64,000 nt of DNA from Gammaproteobacteria bacterium (GTDB lineage Bacteria; Pseudomonadota; Gammaproteobacteria; JBCCGL01): NCBI GenBank assembly GCA_965277715.1, contig OZ255836.1, positions 160,001 through 224,000 on the forward strand, read 5' to 3'. Position 1 is the first letter of the stretch. Every line of letters starts with the position of its first letter. The position numbers and the translations under genes were made by a program. Shown here in pieces: positions 3,357-48,497 of the stretch. The notes beneath the pieces are model-generated. The model ran no database searches. It had not been told where the DNA came from and saw only the letters and a program-made list of their open reading frames with translations.

Positions 3357-4247
3357 CTATACCGTTGGCAGCATAAGCGTTTTCCTTTCGCCCAGCATAA
3401 CCTGCGCCAATGACTGAGCGGACTTTTGAATAGCCCCCTGTAAAGTAAGTTGCTCTTCGTTTACGGTAACTTTGTAACTTATCAGCTCCAATAGCTGGCG
3501 TCTCAATTCCTGATCCAGCTCGGCGTTAGCGTCACACGCTTGTATCAACTGCCAGACATGCAAATCCACATAAGGCCGGTAAGGTTCCATTACATCGTCT
3601 GATAGGCAATAGGCGTTGTAGCGGTTGTGATGATGTATACCCAACGACGGGTGTAGCCCCGCAGCACACAAGGAGCGACTGACCAAAGCGCGCAAGATAG
3701 CGTAGCCATAATTGAGAAAGCGGTTTTGATCCGGTGCGTCTCTATCTCTTTTAAAACCTTCGCCCTTAAACAGGCGGCTCCAATAGCGACGGGCCGCCTG
3801 AGCCTCGATATTGGCAGGGTCGCCGGAACGCACCTTTTTTACCAACACTGACAAACCAGCGTCATTTCCCGTAAGGTCTTGCAAAACGCGGCCTTGAAAG
3901 CGGATTTTGGCCTGAATCAGTTGCTTCCATAGTGCCTTTTTCACGGGTTTCTGCAGTTCCACTTGTGCGGCAAAGCGTTCGGTTTGTAAGGTATTACTGT
4001 CCAGCGGCATAAACAGGCCAATAGGGTGATGGCTCTGGTTACTGCTGATCACCATCACATTTGCCTGTACCAGCTCACTCAAACAATATTGAGTAATCAG
4101 TGTTTGCGGATGGTCGATAATCACCGCAGAGAGGTCTTCTATGGGCACGGAGCCAATCTGTTGCTTATCGCGTTCGATAATCAGTTGCTGATGGCGGTAG
4201 CTGAGATAGCAGCCTTCTGTGCCGATTTCGATAATCCGCTTACTCAT
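3357..4247 (-). CDS. cas1: Type II CRISPR-associated endonuclease Cas1
   Basis: NIEAQAARRYW, LNYGYAILR, LGIHHHN..NAYCLSDDVMEPYRP. Confidence 0.97.
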   Translation of the reverse strand: MSKRIIEIGTEGCYLSYRHQQLIIERDKQQIGSVPIEDLSAVIIDHPQTLITQYCLSELVQANVMVISSNQSHHPIGLFMPLDSNTLQTERFAAQVELQKPVKKALWKQLIQAKIRFQGRVLQDLTGNDAGLSVLVKKVRSGDPANIEAQAARRYWSRLFKGEGFKRDRDAPDQNRFLNYGYAILRALVSRSLCAAGLHPSLGIHHHNRYNAYCLSDDVMEPYRPYVDLHVWQLIQACDANAELDQELRRQLLELISYKVTVNEEQLTLQGAIQKSAQSLAQVMLGERKTLMLPTV

Positions 4248-7200
4248 GGGGGGTGGCCACTTTTCCTAGCGGGCTTATCGTTAACAGTCTTGCTCCAGAC
4301 TGCCTGAGTGTTTCAGGGGTTTTATAAATAAATTTCTGCGAATCCTGACTTGCATCCGTATGAGTACGTAATGCGATAAGACCGTTTTGATCAAATTTCT
4401 GCACCCGGCAAATTAAAGCCTGGCCTTGATGGTTTAGTGAGAATACATCTTCTTTGTGTACAGTCATAACAAAGCGCTCATCTTTGCCATGTTGGATTGT
4501 TACCACGGGCTGACCGTGCCGTTTACGAGTGGCTGCTTCCAGCATGTTCACCACTTCGCCACGCCATTTAAGCCTGCCTTTTACGTCGGTAAATTCAATA
4601 ATCTCAATATGATGATTGTTGCGCGTCCAGACGTTACGTTGATGCCTGATGCTTTCATCATTGCTGCCAATAGTGGCGATAGTGCGTTGATAAACCAACC
4701 GGACTTTTTTGATGGGGCGAGTTACACGGCCCTGTTTATCCCGAAAACCGAAAGGATTTTCGGGGTTGGCGAAAGCGTCTTTGAAGTTTTGTGACCTGGC
4801 AAAGTGCTCTAACGCCATTTGCCGGATTTTAGGGTCACGGATATGGTGCAGATCCTTTTGCTTGCTTAATTCCACCAGCGGTTTGCGTATAACAACTTCT
4901 GGCACGCCTTTGGTGTCGGTGTTGCCGGTAAGCCCGTAGAGAAACTCTTTGTGTAATGCGCCTTGCACCTTGCGATTGGTTTTGTGGGAGACCGTGATTT
5001 TCCCCACCGCTTTGGTGGCGTGTTGACGCAGGTCAGTGATAGGTTCCGGGTAGTTTTCTATGCGTAGACCGCGATATGAAAGGGTGTGATAGCGACTGAG
5101 CCGCTGCACTGCTCGCCTATCTGTCAAGGCAACCACTAACGCATCTATAGCATGGTGGCGGTGGTCCTCTCGCGTTTTTTCACCATCATTGCTAAGAATG
5201 CCATTAAGTGCCCAGGCGCGCCTTAAGAGTGCAGTGGTGCCTCCTTTAACCGGTTGTACGTTTACGCCAAGCTGCCCTAAAAAGGTAACGGTTTGCCGCG
5301 CAATATAGCGGGTTTCATTTAACTGCTGGCTGACAAAGTCCACGTCGTCAAGATTTTCCATAGTGAAGCGTTTGCGCTTTGGGTAAGGCAACTTTTTTAC
5401 ACGTGCCAATATTTCACCGTATATCACTTGGTTACCAGAATAGTGTTCATAAGGCGTATGGTTTGCTTTGCGCTCGTTTTCGCCTTTTTCACACAAGGTT
5501 TTGTTCATAAAGCTGTCATCCAGACTGCGAGAATAGGGGATGATGTGTTCGATATCAAAGCGCGGGGAATCACCGAACAGTGCGTCCATGCTAATAGTCT
5601 TACCTGTATAGGGGCACAGGTGTTCGCATTCCTCCCAGAGTTTGTATTTGATGATATCGTTTCGCGTGGGGTTAAGGCCGTATTCGCCTAGTCTTTCCTC
5701 TGCTATTTTATTTTTCTTTTCATTTTCTTTATTGCGCCGGTCATCTTCCGCACGCTGCTTGGCGTTGGCTTTAAGGTCACGCGCCATTTCTACCCGGATA
5801 ATATCGGTTGCCGTAGGTTTTGATAATGGCATTCACTACCTTACGCACCTGATATAAAGCGCGTTCCACCATGGGGTTGCGCAGATCACCGATACACATA
5901 GGGCCGTCAGTCAAGTCATCGGCGTGATTGGCAGAGTTGATTACTGTGCCGTCTTTTTTCTCTTTACGCCGGGCGGCTTTACCGGGAAAAGGCAGTGCAT
6001 CGAAACACTTTTCAGGTTCCGGTTTAGTATGCATATAACCAGCACGCTCGCAGGCTTGGTTGTAGGTGTATCCACGATTCTCTGGAGTGGAAACTTCACT
6101 CAAAAACGACAGAATATCGCGGATCGCCTTGTGTGATAAGTGCATATACCCTTTGGGTAGACGAAGGTTGAGCAGCTTATCAATAGTAGATTCTTCAAAG
6201 CGCCAGTATTTCCGCAGGCGATTTTTGAGGGGCTGTTCTTCGGCGATATTAATCAGGTCGGATACCAAGTCCTCCTTCTGTCGATTCGACAGTGACTGCC
6301 AGGTTTTTTTGGTCAGCGCGCTGGAGAGCATAGCGGCGGTTTGGTTGCCTAGCAGGCCGGATTTGCGCACCCGCTCCAGGTTCAAGTGGCTGGATTTGTC
6401 GGGAAGACTCAGGGCTTTTTTCACCTTTTCCCAGGACATTTGCTTACTGGTGCCAAGTTTGCTGTGCAGAATCAGTCGCTCTTTGTCGGTGAGAAAACGT
6501 TCTTTACCATCGGCAAAAATAACCTTTAGGTTGTTCAGGTTTTGCCACAACCTAAATTCCTGAGCAGCCAGGGTTGCCGCTGCCGCTCGTTTACGTTGAG
6601 TAAACTCACAACTGCCTATCAGATGCTTTTGTATTTTTAATGGCCGCTGGTCAAAAATTGCCGCCCTTATACGCTTACGTGATGTTGGGGTCATGGCCTT
6701 GGGGTGATGTGTCTCCTGTGCCAGCCAAATCTCATCAAACTCCTTTTCATACATGCGTCGGGCGGTATAGTTGCCACGGATACGGGTTTTATGCGGGTCG
6801 AGTGAATAGAAATACTCGCCGAGGCTACGGTAGCGACCCTCTCGCATCGCTGTATCTATTTCACCGATGCCGCTACTGACTGCGCCGTCTTCTTTGTCAT
6901 TGCCCACTTTCCGATTGGAAAGATAGCCACGCCGCTGGCCCAGATGGTATAAAGCTCTGCCCAGGTGGTAAGCGGATAACGGTTTGTCCAGCGCCTGAGC
7001 GCGTAAGGCGTAGGGATCAAGCTGAAACACTTCTGCCAACTCGACAGGTTTTTTAGGTAACAGGCGACTGTCTTGCAGAGCATGTAACAGCTTCTGCTTG
7101 CGGCGCACCCGGCGATAACCCTGCCGCCTTAGCGAACGCGCCTCACGGCGCTCCTGGTTCAGTGATTTTTCGCCATTACTGCGGTCCACCCCTTCAGGGA

Positions 7201-7309
7201 AGATACGCACGCCCATATCGACTATGGACTGCGGTGTGGGGTCAACGTCAATCAGGCACCAACCAACTGAGCTGGTACCAAGGTCGAGGCCGAGAATGGT
7301 TTTTTTCAT
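4240..7309 (-). pseudogene. cas9: Type II-C Cas9 (~1020 aa if repaired), split into two ORFs by one frameshift at ~5806-5809
   Basis: RuvC-I ILGLDLGTSSVGW, bridge helix and REC in 5777-7309; RuvC-II IIRVEMARD, HNH DIEHIIPYS...N...N and RuvC-III HHAIDA in 4240-5832; no csn2 or cas4. Confidence 0.93.
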
Positions 7310-14113: not shown

Positions 14114-15355
14114 GTGTATCAGCCCAGGTCCAGATCATCTTTGCGGCGCCAGTTAACGCTGACAATCTGTGCTTTTTTTTTTGACATCAGTAACTTTAAT
14201 TATTGGTGGCACATATATTTATGTATATTTGGGCTTTTCACGATTTATAGACTCGCTTTCTCCGGAAGCACAAGACGCGTACTACACCAACTGGACTGAA
14301 GAAGGCCTACCCGCACCGTATCTGGTGGATGAGATCAGTATTGCTGAAGAGACTATGTTGAATCCAATATATGAAAACGAGTTGACGGTGGCGTTACTAC
14401 TGACGGTGATTACTTTTTGTTTGGTAGTGGTCATCGCACCCGTGGTTGCGCGAAGACTTACCCAGCCACTGGAACAGGCAGCAGCTTCTGCACAGGAAAT
14501 CGCCGATGGTAATTTTGATCACCGTATAGAGCTGTCATCACATAGGAGTGCTGAAGTGTCATCACTTAATGAAAGCTTTACAGCGATGGCAGCTTCACTT
14601 CAGAAAAAAATGCTGAAGTGAAATATGGCACAGCCTCTGTCGCTCATGAGCTGCGCACACCTATGACAATCGTGCAAGGTTATCTGCAGGGTATCCGCGA
14701 TGGCATTTTTACCGCCGACGAAGCGCAACTGGATTTAATGCTCAAACAGATGGATAGCTTGGGAAATTTGGTAGATGATTTGAAAACCATCTCGCTGGCA
14801 GATTCGGGGCAGCTTAAATTGAATCTGGAATCTGTCAATTTGGCTGACATCGCTCAGCAGACCGTGGAAATCATTCGGCCAGAGTATCCAGACATTGATA
14901 TTCGCTTTGACAGCAATGATCATGCTGAATTTATCACCCGCTGCGACTCTGATCGTGTCAAACAACTGTTGATGGGGCTTATCAATAATTCTGCCCGCTA
15001 TGGTGGCACTGAGGTACTAATTAGCTTAGCTAATTTTGGTGATGGAGACATCCACCTATCTGTCGCAGATAACGGTCCCGGTTTTAGTGATCAAGCACTA
15101 CAAAGAGGCACCGAGCGCTTTTGGCGCGATGAAGGCTCTCGTTCCAGGGATATGGGCGGATCTGGTTTTGGGTTAGCTATTGCAGATGCGGTGATGATCG
15201 CACATAGAGGGAGCCTGCAGTTAATGAACACAGCGACGCAAAAACATGGCGCTATTGTTCATTGCAGTTTTAATGGCGTGCTGCGTTTAAAGGTTTCTTA
15301 TAGCTTTCACTCCGCTGATAGGTACAGGTACGGTAGGCGCGGCTGCCGTGCCTGA
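14114..15355 (+). pseudogene. HAMP sensor histidine kinase (AdeS/BaeS-like), two homopolymer frameshifts
   Basis: AHELRTP H-box, DNGPG, GGSGFGL; frame breaks at T10 (14173-14182) and A7 (14604-14610). Confidence 0.82.
15325..15354. repeat. GC-rich hairpin, REP-like (GTAG followed by palindrome)
   Basis: CAGGTACGGTAG-GCGCGG-CTGCCGTGCCTG. Confidence 0.4.
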
Positions 15356-40734: not shown

Positions 40735-41707
40735 AGGAGCCATTGTCACCAGCCACGCCAATTGAGTGAAGAAGAACGTTCTGTGGTATTGAATACGCTC
40801 AATAATTGGGAATTCTATGATCAACCACCAGCACAGGTCTACCACACCCTGCTCAGTCGCTGTATTTATCTCTGCTCCATCAGCACCCTGCACCGACTGC
40901 TGCGCCAGTCCGATCAGTCAGGGGAACGCCGAAGACAGCGCCCTGGGCAAGCCAACGCGGTGCCAAGGCTTTCAGCCAGCCAACCTAATGAGGTCTGGAC
41001 GTGGGACATTACAAAACTCGCCACCGTTGAGTGCGGTGTTTACTTATCGCTTTATGTAGTGATGGATTGATTCAGTCGCTATATTGTGGCTTGGATGCTT
41101 TCTCATAAAGAAAACAGCGCACTGGCACAGCCGCTCATTCAAGAGGCCAATACACGTTACGCGATTAGACCCGGCCAGTTGACGCGGCATCAAGATCGCG
41201 GGACTCCGATGACAGCACATTGCTACCTGGACTTATTGGTCGAGTTGGCAGTCACTGCAAGCCACAGCAGACCCCGCGTGAGTAATGATAACCCTCACAG
41301 TGAAAGCCAATTCTGAACACTGAAGTATCAGCCTGACTACCTGCGTCGCTTTGACCATTATCGCCATGCTAACAGGTGGTGCACTGAGTATGTCGATTGG
41401 TACAACCATCAGCACTGCCACAGTGCCTTAGAGGGCTTCACGCCTTGTCAGGTATTGACTGCACAGCACCTGTCTCTCGGTCAAGTTTGTCAACAGGCGC
41501 TGGATAAAAAGTATGCCCAACATCCAGAGCGATTCGTACATCAGCGGCCTCTTGTCAGGATGCCGCCTGCGAAGATCTACATTAACCCCGTACACGATGA
41601 ACTGGGGAATATAGAACACGATGCGCACGTCAACTTTCCAACTCTAAATCGAGCTAAATCTATGCTAACTTGAATAACTATGGCTTGAAACAGGTTGACA
41701 CCTTCCG
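40735..41707 (+). mobile_element. IS3-family orfB remnant with stops, right end only
   Basis: WTWDITKL, HQDRG, SRPRVSNDNPHSESQF*; ends ...TTGACA-CCTTCCG. Confidence 0.85.
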
Positions 41708-41780: not shown

Positions 41781-44700
41781 ATGCTATGCAGGTATACCAA
41801 CAAAGGGTTGTTGCTGATTGTATTTTCATTGCTGATAACGGCGTGTGGTGGCGAAAACGCCTCAACACTACCGCTACCACCACCTGCTGGCGATTCAACT
41901 AGCGGCTCCCAGGTCATCCTTGGCCCTATTGTCGGGGCAACAGTCAGTGCAGCGCTGGCCAGTAATACCGCCAACACTATCGAAACCACCACCACTACCG
42001 GAAGTGCCACCAACTTGAATAGTGCAGGCCGCTTTTCTCTACAGTTGACCGGTGTCACTGATGGTGTCTGGGTGCTGGTCAGTGTGACGGGGGGTAATGA
42101 CATCGATGCTGACGATAATGGCGTGCTGGATGCCACCCCCACCGCCAACCAAGGCACAATAAGGGCACTGGGCAAAGCGGCGGACTGGCGCTCTGGCAAC
42201 GCCAATATCACCGTTCTTTCAGAAATACTGGTCAACCGTCTGCTCAATGGCGGGATTGATCTCAATACCCTCACCGATAGCCAGGTCGAAAGTGGGTTGA
42301 ATGCCACCAGTGTGCAATTACTACAAACCAATGCCGATGTTAACGGTGACAATATCAGCAACTATCAGGACATCCTCGGCTTTACTCCGCAAAATCAAAA
42401 CTACCCGGCTAGCGTGGCATTGGCTGATCTCAACACTATTGCTGTCATGCTGGAAAGCGGTAACGCTGCACAAACAGATAATCTAATCACGGCGTTGCTT
42501 AATCAGCCACCGGTGGCCAATGCGGGCAGTGACCAGGTTGTTGCTGAAGGTAGCACGGTGAGCCTCAACGCCACCGGCACGGATACGGATGGCACTATCG
42601 ACCGTTATGCCTGGGTGCAAAACGCGGGCACCACTGTTACCTTAACAGGGGCTGCCACAGCGGCAGCCACCTTCGTCGCGCCCCTATTGCCCGCCAATAC
42701 TGCCACCGAGACCTTGAGTTTTACCCTGACAGTTACCGATAACCTCGGCGCCAGCGCCACAGATACAGTGGTCGTCACCCTCCAGGACAGCAATAACAAT
42801 GCACCTGTAATAACCAGCGCCAACAGCGCCAGCGTCAGTGAAAATACCACTGCTGTACTCACCCTCACCGCCAGTGACGCGGATACGACGGGTGAAACCA
42901 CCACTTACGCGCTCAGTGGCGATAACGCCAGCTTATTTACCCTTAACGGTTCGGCGTTGGCCTTCCAGAATATGCCGGATTTTGAGGTGCGTCCCTGTGG
43001 TGTCGATAACATCTGTAACCTAATAATAACCCCCAGCGATGGTACCAATACCGGGCCTGGACAGACATTTGCCGTCACCCTGGTGGATGTCAACGACAGT
43101 GCCCCGATCATTACCAGTGGCAGTACCGTTAGCGTTTTGGAAAATACCACGGTGGTACTCACCCTCACCGCCAGTGACGCGGATACGACGGGTGAAACCA
43201 CCACTTACGCGCTCAGTGGCGATAACGCCAGCTTATTTACCCTTAACGGTTCGGCGTTGGCCTTCCAGAATATGCCAGATTTTGAGGTGCGTCCCTGTGG
43301 TGTCGATAACATCTGTAACCTAATAATAACCCCCAGCGATGGTATCAATACCGGGCCTGGACAGACATTTGCCGTCACCCTGGTGGATGTCAACGACAGT
43401 GCGCCGGTAATGACCAGCGCCAGTACGGTCAGTGTCGACGAAAACACCACGGTGGTACTCACCCTCACCGCCAGTGATGCCGACAGCACCGGCGAGGCGA
43501 TAGACTTCACGCTTGGTGGTAGTGATGCATCGAGTTTTCGTCTTGTGGGTTCAGCGTTGAGTTTTAGCAGCGCGCCCGACTTTGAAACCCCGGTATGCGG
43601 TGATAATGTCTGTACGATTACCCTCACGCCCAGCGATGGGCTTAATACCGGCAGTGGGCAAACTGTAACGGTTAGTGTCCAGGATCTGAACGACACTGCG
43701 CCGGTAATGAGCAGCGCCAGTACGGTCAGTGTCGACGAAAACACCACGGTGGTACTCACCCTCACCGCCAGCGATGCCGACAGCACCGGCGAGACGATAA
43801 GCTTCACGCTTGGTGGTAGTGATGCATCGAGTTTTCGTCTTGTGGGTTCAGTGTTGAGTTTTAGCAGCGCGCCCGACTTTGAAACCCCGGTATGCGGTGA
43901 TAATGTCTGTACGATTACCCTCACGCCCAGCGATGGGCTTAATACCGGCAGTGGGCAAACTGTAACGGTTAGCGTCCAGGATCTGAACGACACTGCGCCG
44001 GTAATGACCAGCGCCAGTACGGTCAGTGTCGACGAAAACATCACGGTGGTACTCACCCTCACCGCCAGTGACGCGGATACGACAGGTGAAACCACCACTT
44101 ACGCGCTCAGTGGCGATAACGCCAGCTTATTTACCCTTAACGGTTCGGCGTTGGCCTTCCAGAATATGCCGGATTTTGAGGTGCGTCCCTGTGGTGTCGA
44201 TAACATCTGTAACCTAATAATAACCCCTAGCGATGGTATCAATACCGGGCTTGGACAGACATTTGCCGTCACCCTGGTGGATGTCAACGACAGTGCGCCG
44301 GTAATGAGCAGCGCCAGTACGGTCAGTGTCGACGAAAACACCACGGTGGTACTCACCCTCACCGCCAGTGATGCCGACAGCACCGGCGAGGCGATAGACT
44401 TCACGCTTGGTGGTAGTGATGCATCGAGTTTTCGTCTTGTGGATTCAGCGTTGAGTTTTAGCAGCGCGCCCGACTTTGAAACCCCGGTATGCGGTAATAA
44501 TATCTGTACTATCACCATTACCCCCAGTGACGGCGTCAATATTGGCAGCGCACAAACGATCACAGTAACCGTTAACGACCTCGCCGCCATCACTCTGGCG
44601 AATAGCAATATCAACGAGGGAAACAGCGGTACGACAGTAGTCAATGTCAACGTTAGCCTCGCGTCGATAGCTACCGCCAGTGTCAGTTTCAGTGTGAGCG

Positions 44701-45620
44701 ACGGCACAGCGACTACAGCAGATAATGACTACAGCGTAGCCAACAGCACCGGCACCCTTAACTTTACCGGTGGCTCGACAACCGCAGTGGTAGCTATCAC
44801 CATCAATGGCGACACACAAGTAGAGAGCGATGAAACCCTCAGCATTGTACTAAGTAACCCCATCAACGCCGAACTACAGGGCATTAGCACAGCAATATTG
44901 ACGATCAACAACGATGATTCAGCAGCCCCAACGCTTAACGACACCGGCGTTGTGTTTGGTGCAGACACCAACCTGAACAACAGTGGTTGCACCAGCGCCG
45001 ATACGGTTATCGCCCAGCAGGATTGTTCGCGGGGCCGGGATGTCACCAATAACGACGCCAGCGATGGCCACGCGGGGTTTAGTTTCACCAAAATCAGCAG
45101 CACAGGTCAACCCCTGGCGGCTAGTGCTAGCGCTTGGGCCTGTACACAGGACAATATCACCGGTCTGATGTGGGAGGTAAAAACCAATGATAACGGCCTA
45201 CACGATAGGGGTGATATGTACACTTGGTATAGCACCGACAGTAGCAATAATGGTGGCAATGCGGGTACCGAAAATACTACAACCAGCTGCTTTGGCTACA
45301 ATAATGCCGATGCAGCGACCTTTTGCAACACCCAGGCGTATGTGGCACGCATTAACGCGGCGGGCCTATGCGGTTTTACTGATTGGATCTTGCCGGGCCG
45401 TGAACAACTGCGCTCGATAGCCAATCGCAATAGTTTTAATCCGGCTATCGATACCGCTTATTTTCCAAATACCCGATCCGATAATTTTTATTGGTCGTCG
45501 TCGCCCCTCGCCAACAACAATGCCAACGCGTGGGACTTCTTCTTCTTCGACGGCAGCGATAGCAACTTCTTCAGCAAGAGTAGCAACCATTTTGTTCGTG
45601 TTGTTCGCGCCAGTCAGTAG
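41781..45620 (+). CDS. Large surface lipoprotein/adhesin: PKD-like domain, six cadherin-like repeats, Calx-beta, C-terminal DUF1566 (Lcl); DGR target
   Basis: LITAC lipobox; DVND.AP/PDFE repeats; DNITGLMWE...LP..EQL.S...YWSSS Lcl motifs. Confidence 0.88.
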   Translation: MLCRYTNKGLLLIVFSLLITACGGENASTLPLPPPAGDSTSGSQVILGPIVGATVSAALASNTANTIETTTTTGSATNLNSAGRFSLQLTGVTDGVWVLVSVTGGNDIDADDNGVLDATPTANQGTIRALGKAADWRSGNANITVLSEILVNRLLNGGIDLNTLTDSQVESGLNATSVQLLQTNADVNGDNISNYQDILGFTPQNQNYPASVALADLNTIAVMLESGNAAQTDNLITALLNQPPVANAGSDQVVAEGSTVSLNATGTDTDGTIDRYAWVQNAGTTVTLTGAATAAATFVAPLLPANTATETLSFTLTVTDNLGASATDTVVVTLQDSNNNAPVITSANSASVSENTTAVLTLTASDADTTGETTTYALSGDNASLFTLNGSALAFQNMPDFEVRPCGVDNICNLIITPSDGTNTGPGQTFAVTLVDVNDSAPIITSGSTVSVLENTTVVLTLTASDADTTGETTTYALSGDNASLFTLNGSALAFQNMPDFEVRPCGVDNICNLIITPSDGINTGPGQTFAVTLVDVNDSAPVMTSASTVSVDENTTVVLTLTASDADSTGEAIDFTLGGSDASSFRLVGSALSFSSAPDFETPVCGDNVCTITLTPSDGLNTGSGQTVTVSVQDLNDTAPVMSSASTVSVDENTTVVLTLTASDADSTGETISFTLGGSDASSFRLVGSVLSFSSAPDFETPVCGDNVCTITLTPSDGLNTGSGQTVTVSVQDLNDTAPVMTSASTVSVDENITVVLTLTASDADTTGETTTYALSGDNASLFTLNGSALAFQNMPDFEVRPCGVDNICNLIITPSDGINTGLGQTFAVTLVDVNDSAPVMSSASTVSVDENTTVVLTLTASDADSTGEAIDFTLGGSDASSFRLVDSALSFSSAPDFETPVCGNNICTITITPSDGVNIGSAQTITVTVNDLAAITLANSNINEGNSGTTVVNVNVSLASIATASVSFSVSDGTATTADNDYSVANSTGTLNFTGGSTTAVVAITINGDTQVESDETLSIVLSNPINAELQGISTAILTINNDDSAAPTLNDTGVVFGADTNLNNSGCTSADTVIAQQDCSRGRDVTNNDASDGHAGFSFTKISSTGQPLAASASAWACTQDNITGLMWEVKTNDNGLHDRGDMYTWYSTDSSNNGGNAGTENTTTSCFGYNNADAATFCNTQAYVARINAAGLCGFTDWILPGREQLRSIANRNSFNPAIDTAYFPNTRSDNFYWSSSPLANNNANAWDFFFFDGSDSNFFSKSSNHFVRVVRASQ

Positions 45621-45633
45621 CCTTGGTTTTTGG
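45489..45633 (+). repeat. DGR variable region 1 plus IMH-like tail
   Basis: Shares framework with 46579-46724; differences are at codon positions 1-2. Confidence 0.85.
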
Positions 45634-45651
45634 TGAGGTGAGGGTGCCGAA

Positions 45652-46127
45652 ATGAATCCGTTTATGCCGACGATTGTCCGAGATGTCGAGCGCCTTAGCT
45701 ATTGGGGGCATTACAGTCATGCTAATAGTTTTCGCCTACGTCAGCAACTGATGCAGCAATTTCCCTGGTTACCCGTTTTATTTTCAAGCCATCAGGGAAA
45801 GCTGATACGCAAGTATTACCCACCCAAACAACTTCATTGGTGTGAAGGCAGGGCTAATCTTGTCAGTCAGTTGCAGTATTTTCGCCACTTTTACCCACAG
45901 GTGTTGTTGTGTTAGTACAGTTGGGCTATCAGATGTTGCTGGTAACGCCTGATATGGCGATCGGTGATATCTTGCAAAAAGCCCCGCGTTATCAATGGAA
46001 CAAAGCCATAAAACCCACGCAATCGGCAGTATGGGTTAGTGAACAAGGCTATCTTCAAAACGGTGGTCGCCACCGTATCGCCACCCATTTTACCAACTAT
46101 ATTTCCCCCCTCAATAGTTATGACTAA
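45652..46127 (+). pseudogene. DGR core remnant: 15 Avd-like N-terminal residues fused to an RT C-terminus, then frameshifted
   Basis: MNPFMPTIVRDVERL / SYWGHYSHANSFRLRQQL (RT thumb-like); tail LVQLG...VSEQGYLQNGGRHR; no YxDD motif. Confidence 0.65.
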
Positions 46128-46146
46128 CCACCTGGAGGCAGTGACC

Positions 46147-46710
46147 ATGCCCGGATTAGAACACCCCAAAGTAACGCAATTACGTTACGCGCTAGTATTA
46201 CTGCTCTGCTGTGTGGCAAGCGGTATCGCTAGCGCAACGTGCAATAGCAATATCGTGCGTACAGCGCCAGACAACCGCTACCAGATTCAAGCAGGGGGCG
46301 CAGAGGTGCTGGATACACAAACCAATTTGATCTGGCAACGCTGTAGTCTAGGGCAAACCTTTAATAATCTAGGCACCGCAGAGACCAGCGATGATCGCTG
46401 TGATAACAGCGCCACAGCTTACACCTGGCAGGGGGCGTTACAGGCAGCGCAGGGTATTGCGACTAATAGTGGTCAGGCGTGGTTTTTGCCGAATATCAAC
46501 GAGCTGGCCAGTCTTGTCGAGCTGGCGTGTAGCCCGGTTATCAATGAAACCGTTTTTCCTGACACACCATCGTCTACTTATTGGTCGTCGTCGCCCGTCG
46601 CCTCCAACAATATCGCCGCGTGGATCCTCGACTTCAGCAGCGGCGGCGATGACTTCAGCAGCAAGAATGACAACAGCCGTTTTGTTCGTGTTGTTCGCGC
46701 CAGCCAGTAG
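46147..46710 (+). CDS. Secreted DUF1566 (Lcl) protein; second DGR target
   Basis: SD GGAGG; signal peptide; DTQTNLIWQRC, WFLPNINELASL, YWSSS. Confidence 0.9.
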   Translation: MPGLEHPKVTQLRYALVLLLCCVASGIASATCNSNIVRTAPDNRYQIQAGGAEVLDTQTNLIWQRCSLGQTFNNLGTAETSDDRCDNSATAYTWQGALQAAQGIATNSGQAWFLPNINELASLVELACSPVINETVFPDTPSSTYWSSSPVASNNIAAWILDFSSGGDDFSSKNDNSRFVRVVRASQ

Positions 46711-46724
46711 CCTTGGTTTTTTGG
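46579..46724 (+). repeat. DGR variable region 2 plus IMH-like tail
   Basis: Same framework as variable region 1. Confidence 0.85.
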
Positions 46725-46812
46725 AAGGGGAGTGTAAAAGGTGGAGGGTTGAACAATTTGGATACACCCATAAGCCCACTTTCTAGCCCCCATGTATTTA
46801 CTTGTATGCAAG

Positions 46813-46998
46813 CTAATACAAGGTAGGCGGTGCTCCATTGTATATATGGAGTATTTCGACAATGCCATGTGGCTCGTCGATATGGTAGTACACATGATAA
46901 CGCCGGTATACCAGCATACGTATGTGCGGATACTGTGCGTATCGTGCCACGTTCGCATGAGGAAAAAGCGGTAGCGTATCTTCAATAAAACAGACACC
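46813..46998 (-). pseudogene. RelE/ParE-family toxin C-terminal fragment
   Basis: Manual translation FIEDTLPLFPH...IRMLVYRRYHVYYHIDEPHGIVEILHIYNGA; no start codon. Confidence 0.5.
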
Positions 46999-47177
46999 CT
47001 AGCATGAGAAGAGTTTTCGCCAATTGTGCGTGATGTGATTCTCTTTGACAGAATAGTTTGCAAAAAACGGGCGCAAAAAAGAGGCAAATCGGCTTTTCTG
47101 TAGTAGAGCAGTCTTGAACCCGACAGGCTCCTCGCCCTGATATCGCGCTTTTGTCAAATTCACGTTACAGTACCTAG

Positions 47178-47423
47178 ATGGCTACTATGATTTCTGAAGT
47201 TTATGAGGCGTTCCGTGTCGTAGGCGTACCGGAAGATAAGGCCCGTGAGGCGGCAGAGGCTCTTTCTGCTGAGAGTTTGGCGACTAAAGGGGATATTCAA
47301 TCGCTTAAAGAACAAACGAAACCTGACATTGCCCGATTGGAGACTAAAATTACCCTGTTGCAATGGATGGTCGGTCTGGTGATTGTGGTTGAAATATTGC
47401 CTTTGCTGAAGACGCTGTTTTAG
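47178..47423 (+). CDS. Small coiled-coil membrane-anchored protein (CCDC90/DUF1640-like)
   Basis: GVPEDKAREAAEA...LATKGDI...LLQWMVG plus TM helix. Confidence 0.7.
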   Translation: MATMISEVYEAFRVVGVPEDKAREAAEALSAESLATKGDIQSLKEQTKPDIARLETKITLLQWMVGLVIVVEILPLLKTLF

Positions 47424-47708
47424 GTTCTTATTAACCATTGAAATAGACGCAACTTCAAGAGCCTCAACCGCCTTATTCGTTTTTTTGCGCTAATCAGTAG
47501 CCTTGGTTTTTTTGGGGAGGGGTGTGAAGGGTTGGCGTGATATTTGTGGTGCACAAATCCAGTTCAGTTTGTTTTGTTCGACCGGACTTCCTAAGCCAAT
47601 TCAAAATTTCTACTAGCTTATGAATGCCCCATTTCCCTTTTTCTCCTGGGCAGGAAATAGTATTAATTATGAGATGAGGCCATGGAAATATTCATATATT
47701 GATCATAT

Positions 47709-48497
47709 TTAAAAATGCGCAAGGTGTGGTTTTATCACCTGCAACATAGCATGGAAAATTTTGGGGTTGGCCGCCACTATCTGCTTACCGTGTAACCAAT
47801 CTTCACCGCCACTGAAATCGCCAATTAAGCCACCCGCTTCACGGATGATTAAACTCCCGGCGGCAATGTCCCAGGGGTTTAACCCGGTTTCCCAAAAGCC
47901 GTCGAGCCTGCCAGAGGCAACATAAGCCAGATCAAGCGCCGCCGCACCCGGTCGCCGGATACCGGTGGTGTGCTGGATAAAATCACGTAACAATGCCATG
48001 TAATGGTCGGTATTTTGTGTTTCAAGGTAGGGAAAACCCGTGCCAAGCAGGCTGTTTTCCAGTGTGCGGTGGTTGGATACGCGCAGGCGTTTGTTATCCA
48101 GCCAGGCGCCGCGCCCGCGTGAAGCGGTGAATAGTTCCTGGCTGACTGGATCATAGATAACTGCCTGTTCGAGCTTGCCGGATTTTTGCAATGCAATGGA
48201 TACGGCAAATTGTGGGAATCCGTGCAGGTAGTTGGTCGTGCCATCCAGTGGGTCGATAATCCACACGTAATCACTGTTACCCGATGCACCGGATTCCTCT
48301 GCCAAAACCGCGTGGTCGGGGTAGGACTGGTGTAGCGTCTGGATGATTTTTTCCTCGGCCTGCCGGTCGACATTCGAGACAAAATCATTGTGTTGTTTTT
48401 TTTCTATCGTCAGTGTATCGATGCGTTCGAATTGACGCATAATAACGTTGCCAGCGGCGCGGGCAGCGCGGATGGCAATATTCAACATAGGATGCAT
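47709..48497 (-). CDS. suhB: Inositol monophosphatase SuhB
   Basis: MHPMLNIAIRAARAAG, WIIDPLDGTTN, PWDIAAG; divergent from trmJ. Confidence 0.96.
   Translation of the reverse strand: MHPMLNIAIRAARAAGNVIMRQFERIDTLTIEKKQHNDFVSNVDRQAEEKIIQTLHQSYPDHAVLAEESGASGNSDYVWIIDPLDGTTNYLHGFPQFAVSIALQKSGKLEQAVIYDPVSQELFTASRGRGAWLDNKRLRVSNHRTLENSLLGTGFPYLETQNTDHYMALLRDFIQHTTGIRRPGAAALDLAYVASGRLDGFWETGLNPWDIAAGSLIIREAGGLIGDFSGGEDWLHGKQIVAANPKIFHAMLQVIKPHLAHF

Follow-up and report, generated by a model that had tools for sequence, protein, structure and literature searches.

DGRs of the DUF1566/Fib_succ_major type (CLec2, 'category d') are the described systems to which the present locus is most alike. As characterized by Wu et al. 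(2018, PMC5758913), these DGRs have avd-TR-RT cores (TR, template repeat), their targets have Lcl_C/DUF1566 variable C-termini and comprise one short protein and one long, multi-domain, adhesin-like protein, and their RT carries a MutS_I-like extension. According to the same source, the extensions that follow the thumb of DGR RTs reach about 150 aa and some of them are MutS_I-like, while MutS likeness is also found in a separate small gene of 112-283 aa, called MSL (MutS-like), which lies beside an intact RT and avd. Loss of a DGR core has been described for Treponema denticola, isolates of which keep DGR targets without RT or TR; these were interpreted there as DGR remnants (PMC4891356). The locus presented here shares with the category d systems as described in PMC5758913 the Lcl_C/DUF1566 C-termini, the combination of a short and a long target and the MutS_I-like RT extension, but it has no TR, no RT fingers/palm and no avd past codon 15 and is, in comparison with them, a remnant.

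The window, which is the whole stretch of 64,000 nucleotides (64 kb) that was analysed, contains an ORF of 87 aa (ORF1, 45652-45915) between two Lcl_C (DUF1566) genes (Table 1). ORF1 reads MNPFMPTIVRDVERL, then SYWGHYSHANSFRLR...; both the letters and the layout are as the original prediction had described them, namely 15 codons that run into an RT-thumb-like segment between two targets. We read the locus, with a probability of roughly 85 %, as a dead DGR in which a deletion of about 1.6 kb has left an Avd(1-15)::RT-tail scar. The ancestral cassette would have had the order target 1 (with variable repeat VR1), avd, TR, RT with a MutS-domain-I-like tail, and target 2 (with VR2). The deletion would have brought avd codon 15 in frame with the serine of the SYWGH motif, at the junction 45696/45697, and would have taken out the remainder of avd, the TR and the fingers and palm of the RT; a frameshift in the surviving tail, at 45907-45915, would have been a later step. 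With polymerase and template gone in cis, mutagenic retrohoming could not begin at this locus, and both VRs would be inherited as ordinary sequence.

Table 1 Features of the remnant locus and of its flanking targets (positions are those of the window)
Feature	Position	Strand	Description and basis
Target gene 1	41781..45620	+	1279 aa; cadherin/Ig/Calx-beta repeats, C-terminal Lcl_C (DUF1566)
VR1	45488..45620	+	Variable-repeat end of target 1 including stop codon; direct repeat with 46578-46710
Post-VR element, copy 1	45621..45646	+	Conserved, about 26 nt past the stop codon; repeat families and alignment
Putative avd start, first 15 codons (MNPFMPTIVRDVERL)	45652..45696	+	Start-anchored ungapped match to Avd N-termini
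RT thumb motif SYWGH..HANSFRLR..FPWL and start of MutS-I-like extension	45697..45915	+	phmmer and RT profiles; rest of ORF1 including stop codon
Frameshift, ORF1 frame to ORF2 frame	45907..45915	+	ORF1/ORF2 overlap; both colinear with P0027
ORF2, end of RT C-terminal MutS-domain-I-like extension	45909..46127	+	72 aa, other frame; RT-tail profile
Target gene 2	46147..46710	+	187 aa; hydrophobic N-terminus (by eye) and Lcl_C, Pfam E 1.2e-28
VR2	46578..46710	+	Variable-repeat end of target 2 including stop codon
Post-VR element, copy 2	46711..46740	+	Repeat families and alignment
Orphan third copy	47462..47535	+	Decayed VR end (about the last 30 nt) with its stop codon and a post-VR element; no gene upstream

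Both target ORFs are still intact. In target 1, Pfam places Lcl_C at residues 1121-1276 (E 5.1e-25) and also recognizes Cadherin, Big_9 and Calx-beta domains. The DGR trait of a VR at the 3' end of a target with a C-type-lectin fold is present in both Lcl_C genes and is recognized indirectly, with no TR left for comparison. The stretches 45488-45645 and 46578-46735, which comprise the last 130 or so nt of each gene and some 26 nt past the stop codon, are direct repeats with an identity of 77-87 %. Over the last 48 codons, mismatches between VR1 and VR2 are distributed over codon positions 1, 2 and 3 as 19/19/6, which is the pattern expected from an AAC-rich template. A hairpin, as known 3' of some VRs, was considered for the post-VR element and found no support (z-scores of -0.63, -0.01 and +2.00). 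The orphan third copy was found by blastn (79 % over 57 nt, E 1.7e-07); no Lcl_C remnant or third target gene that could precede it was found in 46711-47720, and the copy is probably what remains of such a gene. The sequence just 5' of target 1 (40762-41673) holds three short ORFs that differ in frame and by eye resemble fragments of an IS3-type transposase/integrase; none of them has a Pfam match at E 1e-5.

The identity of the larger part of ORF1 was established with phmmer against 1.84 billion representatives (E up to 0.001). Of the 28 non-self matches obtained, 14 carry RVT_1 (12 above the Pfam cut-off), one is a repeat protein (P0002) and 13 are without a family; in all 14 RVT_1 proteins the matched stretch lies C-terminal to RVT_1. 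The alignments start at ORF1 residue 15 or 16 in 22 of the 28 cases, the others doing so at residue 3 (three matches), 6, 12 and 14. An RT-tail profile of 225 positions was made from 37 RT sequences, 26 of them from loci and 11 from database proteins picked for long matches. This profile gave 60.7 bits on the frame-1 piece, over profile positions 70-134 and with a start exactly at S16 (45697), and 8.4 bits on ORF2 (E 0.001 among 36 pieces), over positions 183-214. The two ORFs are also colinear with a single protein, P0027, in which ORF1 residues 12-86 correspond to 288-354 and ORF2 residues 1-57 to 354-421. The 'LRxxLA' that precedes SY in RT relatives is absent from the aligned part of the window. 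A family profile from an alignment of 31 tail rows (A3), two of which come from the window, has a match in MutS domain I of Thermus MutS (1ewq residues 10-119; E 2.3e-17), in agreement with the extensions reported in PMC5758913. A long RT tail occurs in 26 of the 80 RT loci that were fetched. The arrangement of an SYxGH..A..RL thumb followed by a MutS-domain-I-like segment, contiguous with RVT_1 in the relatives, is thus found in the window as well, in a copy that is broken by the frameshift. On these similarities, which go far beyond chance, 45697-46127 is the thumb and MutS-like extension, i.e., the C-terminal 145 or so residues, of a long-tailed DGR-type RT, now frameshifted. An extension after the thumb had been noted and is there; it is not read in one frame throughout but resumes in ORF2 after the frameshift, colinear with the RT C-terminus.

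Pfam and NCBIfam gave no families for ORF1, ORF2 or the antisense ORF, with one chance match at E 0.16; a search for homologues of about the length of ORF1 returned only the ORF of the window itself, and of 83 pattern matches to ORF1 peptides in metagenomes none was confirmed. On the + strand, no promoter-like site was found within the remnant (45652-46147); the region 45400-47700 has four such sites, at 47164 and 47323 on the + strand and at 46114 and 46520 on the - strand.

Neither the RT fingers/palm nor the Avd body nor a template repeat was found anywhere in the 64-kb window. A full-length RT profile, run over 1856 six-frame pieces of the 64 kb, matched only at 45637-45912, with positions 359-423 of its 514, and RVT_1 was absent from the 50 window ORFs scanned with Pfam. 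When both VRs were compared by blastn with the 64 kb, only VR1, VR2 and a relic of 57-63 nt, in which the stop codon is kept, were obtained, and no third full repeat. Two traits of a working DGR, an RT with fingers/palm (RVT_1, YxDD) and a TR that differs from the VR at adenines, are therefore both absent within the window. That the segment has no YxDD, as had been stated, is true of the ORF itself; an out-of-frame YADD does exist at 45664-45675. As a relic of the RT active site this YADD was rejected, its flanks being unlike those of such a site: 504 of 1000 shuffles attained the best flank score of -6, the profile gave -4.4 bits, and the match is a chance one. A metagenome scan with a 22-nt adenine-free stretch of the VR led to a sole locus (L081), where an unrelated gene matches by chance within its signal peptide.

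Other genes in the window also seem to be split. On the - strand, at 3357-7309, a Cas1 ORF adjoins two overlapping ORFs in different frames, one with HNH_4 and RuvC_III (4240-5832) and the other with the Cas9 alpha-helical lobe (5777-7309), and the region looks like a frameshifted type II Cas9. At 14169-15355, a sensor histidine kinase is divided over an ORF with HAMP (14169-14621) and an ORF with HisKA/HATPase (14618-15355) in different frames, possibly a further pseudogene, which would match the decay at the DGR.

The layout target-avd-TR-RT-target, which was to be looked for among intact loci, was found exactly, and the comparisons made for the RT tail and for the Avd start both hold. The order VR-avd-TR-RT-VR is present in four loci (L001, L002, L017 and L021), in which avd specifies about 120-140 aa, the small target carries VR2 and the TR abuts or overlaps the start of the RT gene. 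Mismatches between TR and VR are located at TR adenines in 23 of 23 and 25 of 25 cases for the two VRs of L002, 18 of 19 for each of those of L001, 12 of 14 and 15 of 17 for L021, and 16 of 18 and 16 of 19 for L017. In the 36 loci in which both landmarks could be placed, 1346-2139 nt (median 1659 nt) separate avd codon 16 from the SYxGH serine, and the loss of about 1.6 kb was derived from this spacing.

The nearest RT tail among the fetched loci (40 % identity over 67 aa) is that of L012, from a Methylomagnum MAG. As in the window, the RT of L012 is flanked by a large and a small Lcl_C target, with identities of 40 % over the last 336 aa of target 1 and 39 % for target 2, and a conserved element of about 25 nt is present past both VR stop codons. 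Unlike the window, L012 has kept a full-length RT, and an unrelated ORF of 312 aa (5615-6553) occupies the place of avd and TR. L012 is a second, independent way of disabling the same type of cassette. No avd was detectable in L012, L011, L022 or L007; since L012 is without avd, the nearest relative of the tail cannot arbitrate the Avd half of the fusion. The original prediction had one deletion near 45696 take the bulk of avd, the TR and the RT core. Both halves of the fusion hold up, and that a single deletion was involved is inferred from the join, which is clean and in frame; the single event, its size and the absence of another genomic element that acts on the VRs are all inferred in our reading.

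The stretch is present in eight public runs from four studies, four of which were compared: X1 (2022), X2 (2018), X3 (2025) and X6 (2025). X6 is near-identical to the window and is probably its source; all four were examined as contigs, which drop rare variants. In each of the four runs, a single contig spans 45696/7 without a joint, extending from 45602 (45590 in X2) to 46709 (46602 in X3). Looking for reads across an undeleted allele had been proposed as a check and was carried out on these contigs: the same junction and the same frameshift were seen in all four runs and no undeleted allele, with neither a loose end nor an insertion in any of them and no indel at the frameshift. Populations associated with sponges and dating from 2018, 2022 and 2025 thus share the scar. 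Over 2.9 kb, X1, X2 and X3 have 18, 17 and 25 substitutions relative to the window, respectively, none of which lies in VR1 or ORF1; VR1 is identical in all four runs. ORF2 carries two to three substitutions and, in X3, also a 23-nt tandem duplication after 46059, which looks like further decay. In the spacer between the stop codon of target 1 and the ATG of the fused ORF, a 5-nt tandem duplication (GTGAG, 45632-45636) is present in the window and X6 and missing from X1-X3. Downstream of target 2, short dispersed repeats at 46783-46832 and 47071-47132 coincide in all four runs with a peak in contig depth of up to about 6-fold and with many loose-ended foreign contigs; they may be small hairpin or MITE-like repeats.

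VR2 behaves differently from VR1. In X1 and X2 it has two nonsynonymous changes in variable codons, 46598 T>C (codon position 2) and 46675 A>G (position 1), and in X3 its middle has been swapped for 49 letters that fit neither VR, while its last 55 nt are nearer to the tail of VR1. The view that the variants had been locked in can consequently be kept for VR1 only: given the block in X3 and the nonsynonymous changes in X1 and X2, 'frozen' would be too firm a word for VR2. All these runs share the deletion, and the changes in VR2 would fit an engine that is dead in cis and VRs that are still being rewritten in trans by another DGR of the same genome; a single TR that serves remote targets is known in Treponema denticola, as described in PMC4891356. 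VR1, on the other hand, is unchanged in X1, X2 and X3, two changes in 133 nt are not clearly above the background of 0.6 %, and the block in X3 could have arisen by recombination between strains or between VRs. Moreover, depth in X6 is flat across both VRs and no second contig at least 85 % alike was found there, which is weak evidence, as a TR could be less alike. Rewriting in trans is, on balance, rather unlikely.

The Avd half of the scar concerns 15 codons. A seed profile was used to collect 58 Avd ORFs in 80 RT loci from genome_contigs; for the six of these that were checked the best family was NF033474, 'DGR protein Avd', with E values of 3e-06 to 8e-12, below the curated cut-off. Against the 58 Avd N-termini, the 15-mer reached a best ungapped score of 35, with L016, with 8 of 15 identities and M1 on M1. 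Among 1000 shuffles, 1 attained this score and 3 the mean of the top eight; further scores were 26 (L033), 22 (L034), 21 (L077) and 19 (L041). The N-termini of 1283 non-Avd ORFs from the same loci gave a best score of 19 and none above it. The ATG lies 31 nt past the stop codon of target 1, whereas the start of avd in relatives is located 25 to about 190 nt past the stop, so that an Avd-like N-terminus of the NF033474 kind is present at the place expected after a VR. A whole Avd, i.e., a four-helix bundle of about 110-150 aa with its gene between VR and TR, is absent, and only the 15 N-terminal codons are there; neither NCBIfam/Pfam nor the 58-sequence Avd profile, the latter run over the whole window, detected this start. 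The Avds that match best come from loci in which the RT tail is short. Taken together, the comparisons make it very probable that ORF1 residues 1-15 represent the start of Avd, an assignment that had been put forward as tentative on 15 residues and that is supported by the score of 35 and the shuffled and non-Avd controls.

The same residues could have come from the RT itself, as the helix or spacer preceding its thumb, with the left breakpoint at about 45646, right after the post-VR element, and a fortuitous ATG. The likeness to other post-VR copies indeed stops at about 45646, which leaves only 5 nt up to the ATG, and 'LPPxxRDALR' precedes the thumb in some RTs. Some alignments also extend into the first 15 residues: those with the short proteins P0012, P0020 and P0022 (3 of the 28 phmmer matches) reach ORF1 residue 3, and BLAST reaches residues 5-6 in P0024, L005 and L004. 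However, when the 15-mer was compared with the pre-thumb segments of 35 RTs (two of the 37 were dropped, having no recognizable motif), the best score was 14, which 501 of 1000 shuffles attained; for the Avd N-termini the figures are 35 and 1 of 1000. The alignment with the RT-tail profile stops at S16, and in A3 MAFFT gives the window a gap of two residues at the place where every RT row has a hydrophobic and a small residue before SY. An origin of the first 15 residues in the RT is therefore considered unlikely, and the fusion of an Avd start to an RT tail remains the preferred reading.

Pieces of RT joined to a thumb and tail occur elsewhere. In P0009, residues 1-30 correspond to RT 183-212 and residues 30-201 to RT 342-498, and in P0011 residues 8-34 correspond to RT 1-27 and residues 31-218 to RT 332-511; inspection by eye of P0005 and P0028 showed that in these, too, an early RT piece is joined directly to the thumb and MutS-like tail. 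The joins in P0009 and P0011, together with the loss in L012, suggest that this type of cassette breaks often and that the thumb and MutS-like module tends to survive. Stand-alone MutS-like ORFs lie 5' of avd in two loci (L024, 6892-7227, and L040, 1-417) and match only the MutS-like part of the RT-tail profile, at positions of about 117-207; these probably represent the MSL accessory type described by Wu et al. (2018), beside RTs that also bear the extension. It is quite doubtful, all the same, that the thumb and MutS-I-like module repeatedly outlives the core by virtue of a function of its own, with MSL genes arising by deletion of the RT core, and that the rewriting of VR2 could still involve this module or else a second DGR.

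Least of all is the remnant likely to be a working protein of the small MSL accessory type, with a role of its own for the thumb and MutS-I-like module: although both MSL accessory genes and RT extensions of the MutS_I-like kind are known (PMC5758913), L024 and L040 have stand-alone MutS-like ORFs 5' of avd, P0009 and P0011 fuse RT N-terminal or palm pieces straight to a thumb and tail, and ORF1 is an in-frame fusion without substitutions in X1-X3, the tail is frameshifted in all four runs and further disturbed in X3 by the duplication in ORF2, the stand-alone ORFs have no thumb motif, there is no RT or TR at hand to serve, and 0 substitutions in 264 nt at a divergence of about 0.6 % is not significant. 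ORF1 differs from the MSL class in having an RT thumb motif and in lying where there is no intact RT or avd.

In conclusion, the locus is best read as a DGR the switching-off of which can be resolved to the codon: one in-frame join would have dropped template and polymerase and thereby fixed two surface-protein variants, with the reservation made above for VR2. For annotation, the 87-aa ORF is to be treated as a scar rather than as a gene family. The locus contributes one observation on how DGRs turn over in symbionts and reveals no new mechanism. A literature search yielded no account of an Avd::RT fusion scar or of DGRs of sponge symbionts. The Treponema denticola isolates described in PMC4891356 are like the window in that the core is gone while targets are kept; the loss is tabulated there per isolate, while the window keeps an in-frame scar that allows either breakpoint to be located to the codon. 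What is known from described systems is the loss of the core with the targets kept; what the present case adds is an Avd(1-15)::RT-tail scar, in frame and resolved to the codon, that is common to several sponge-associated populations.
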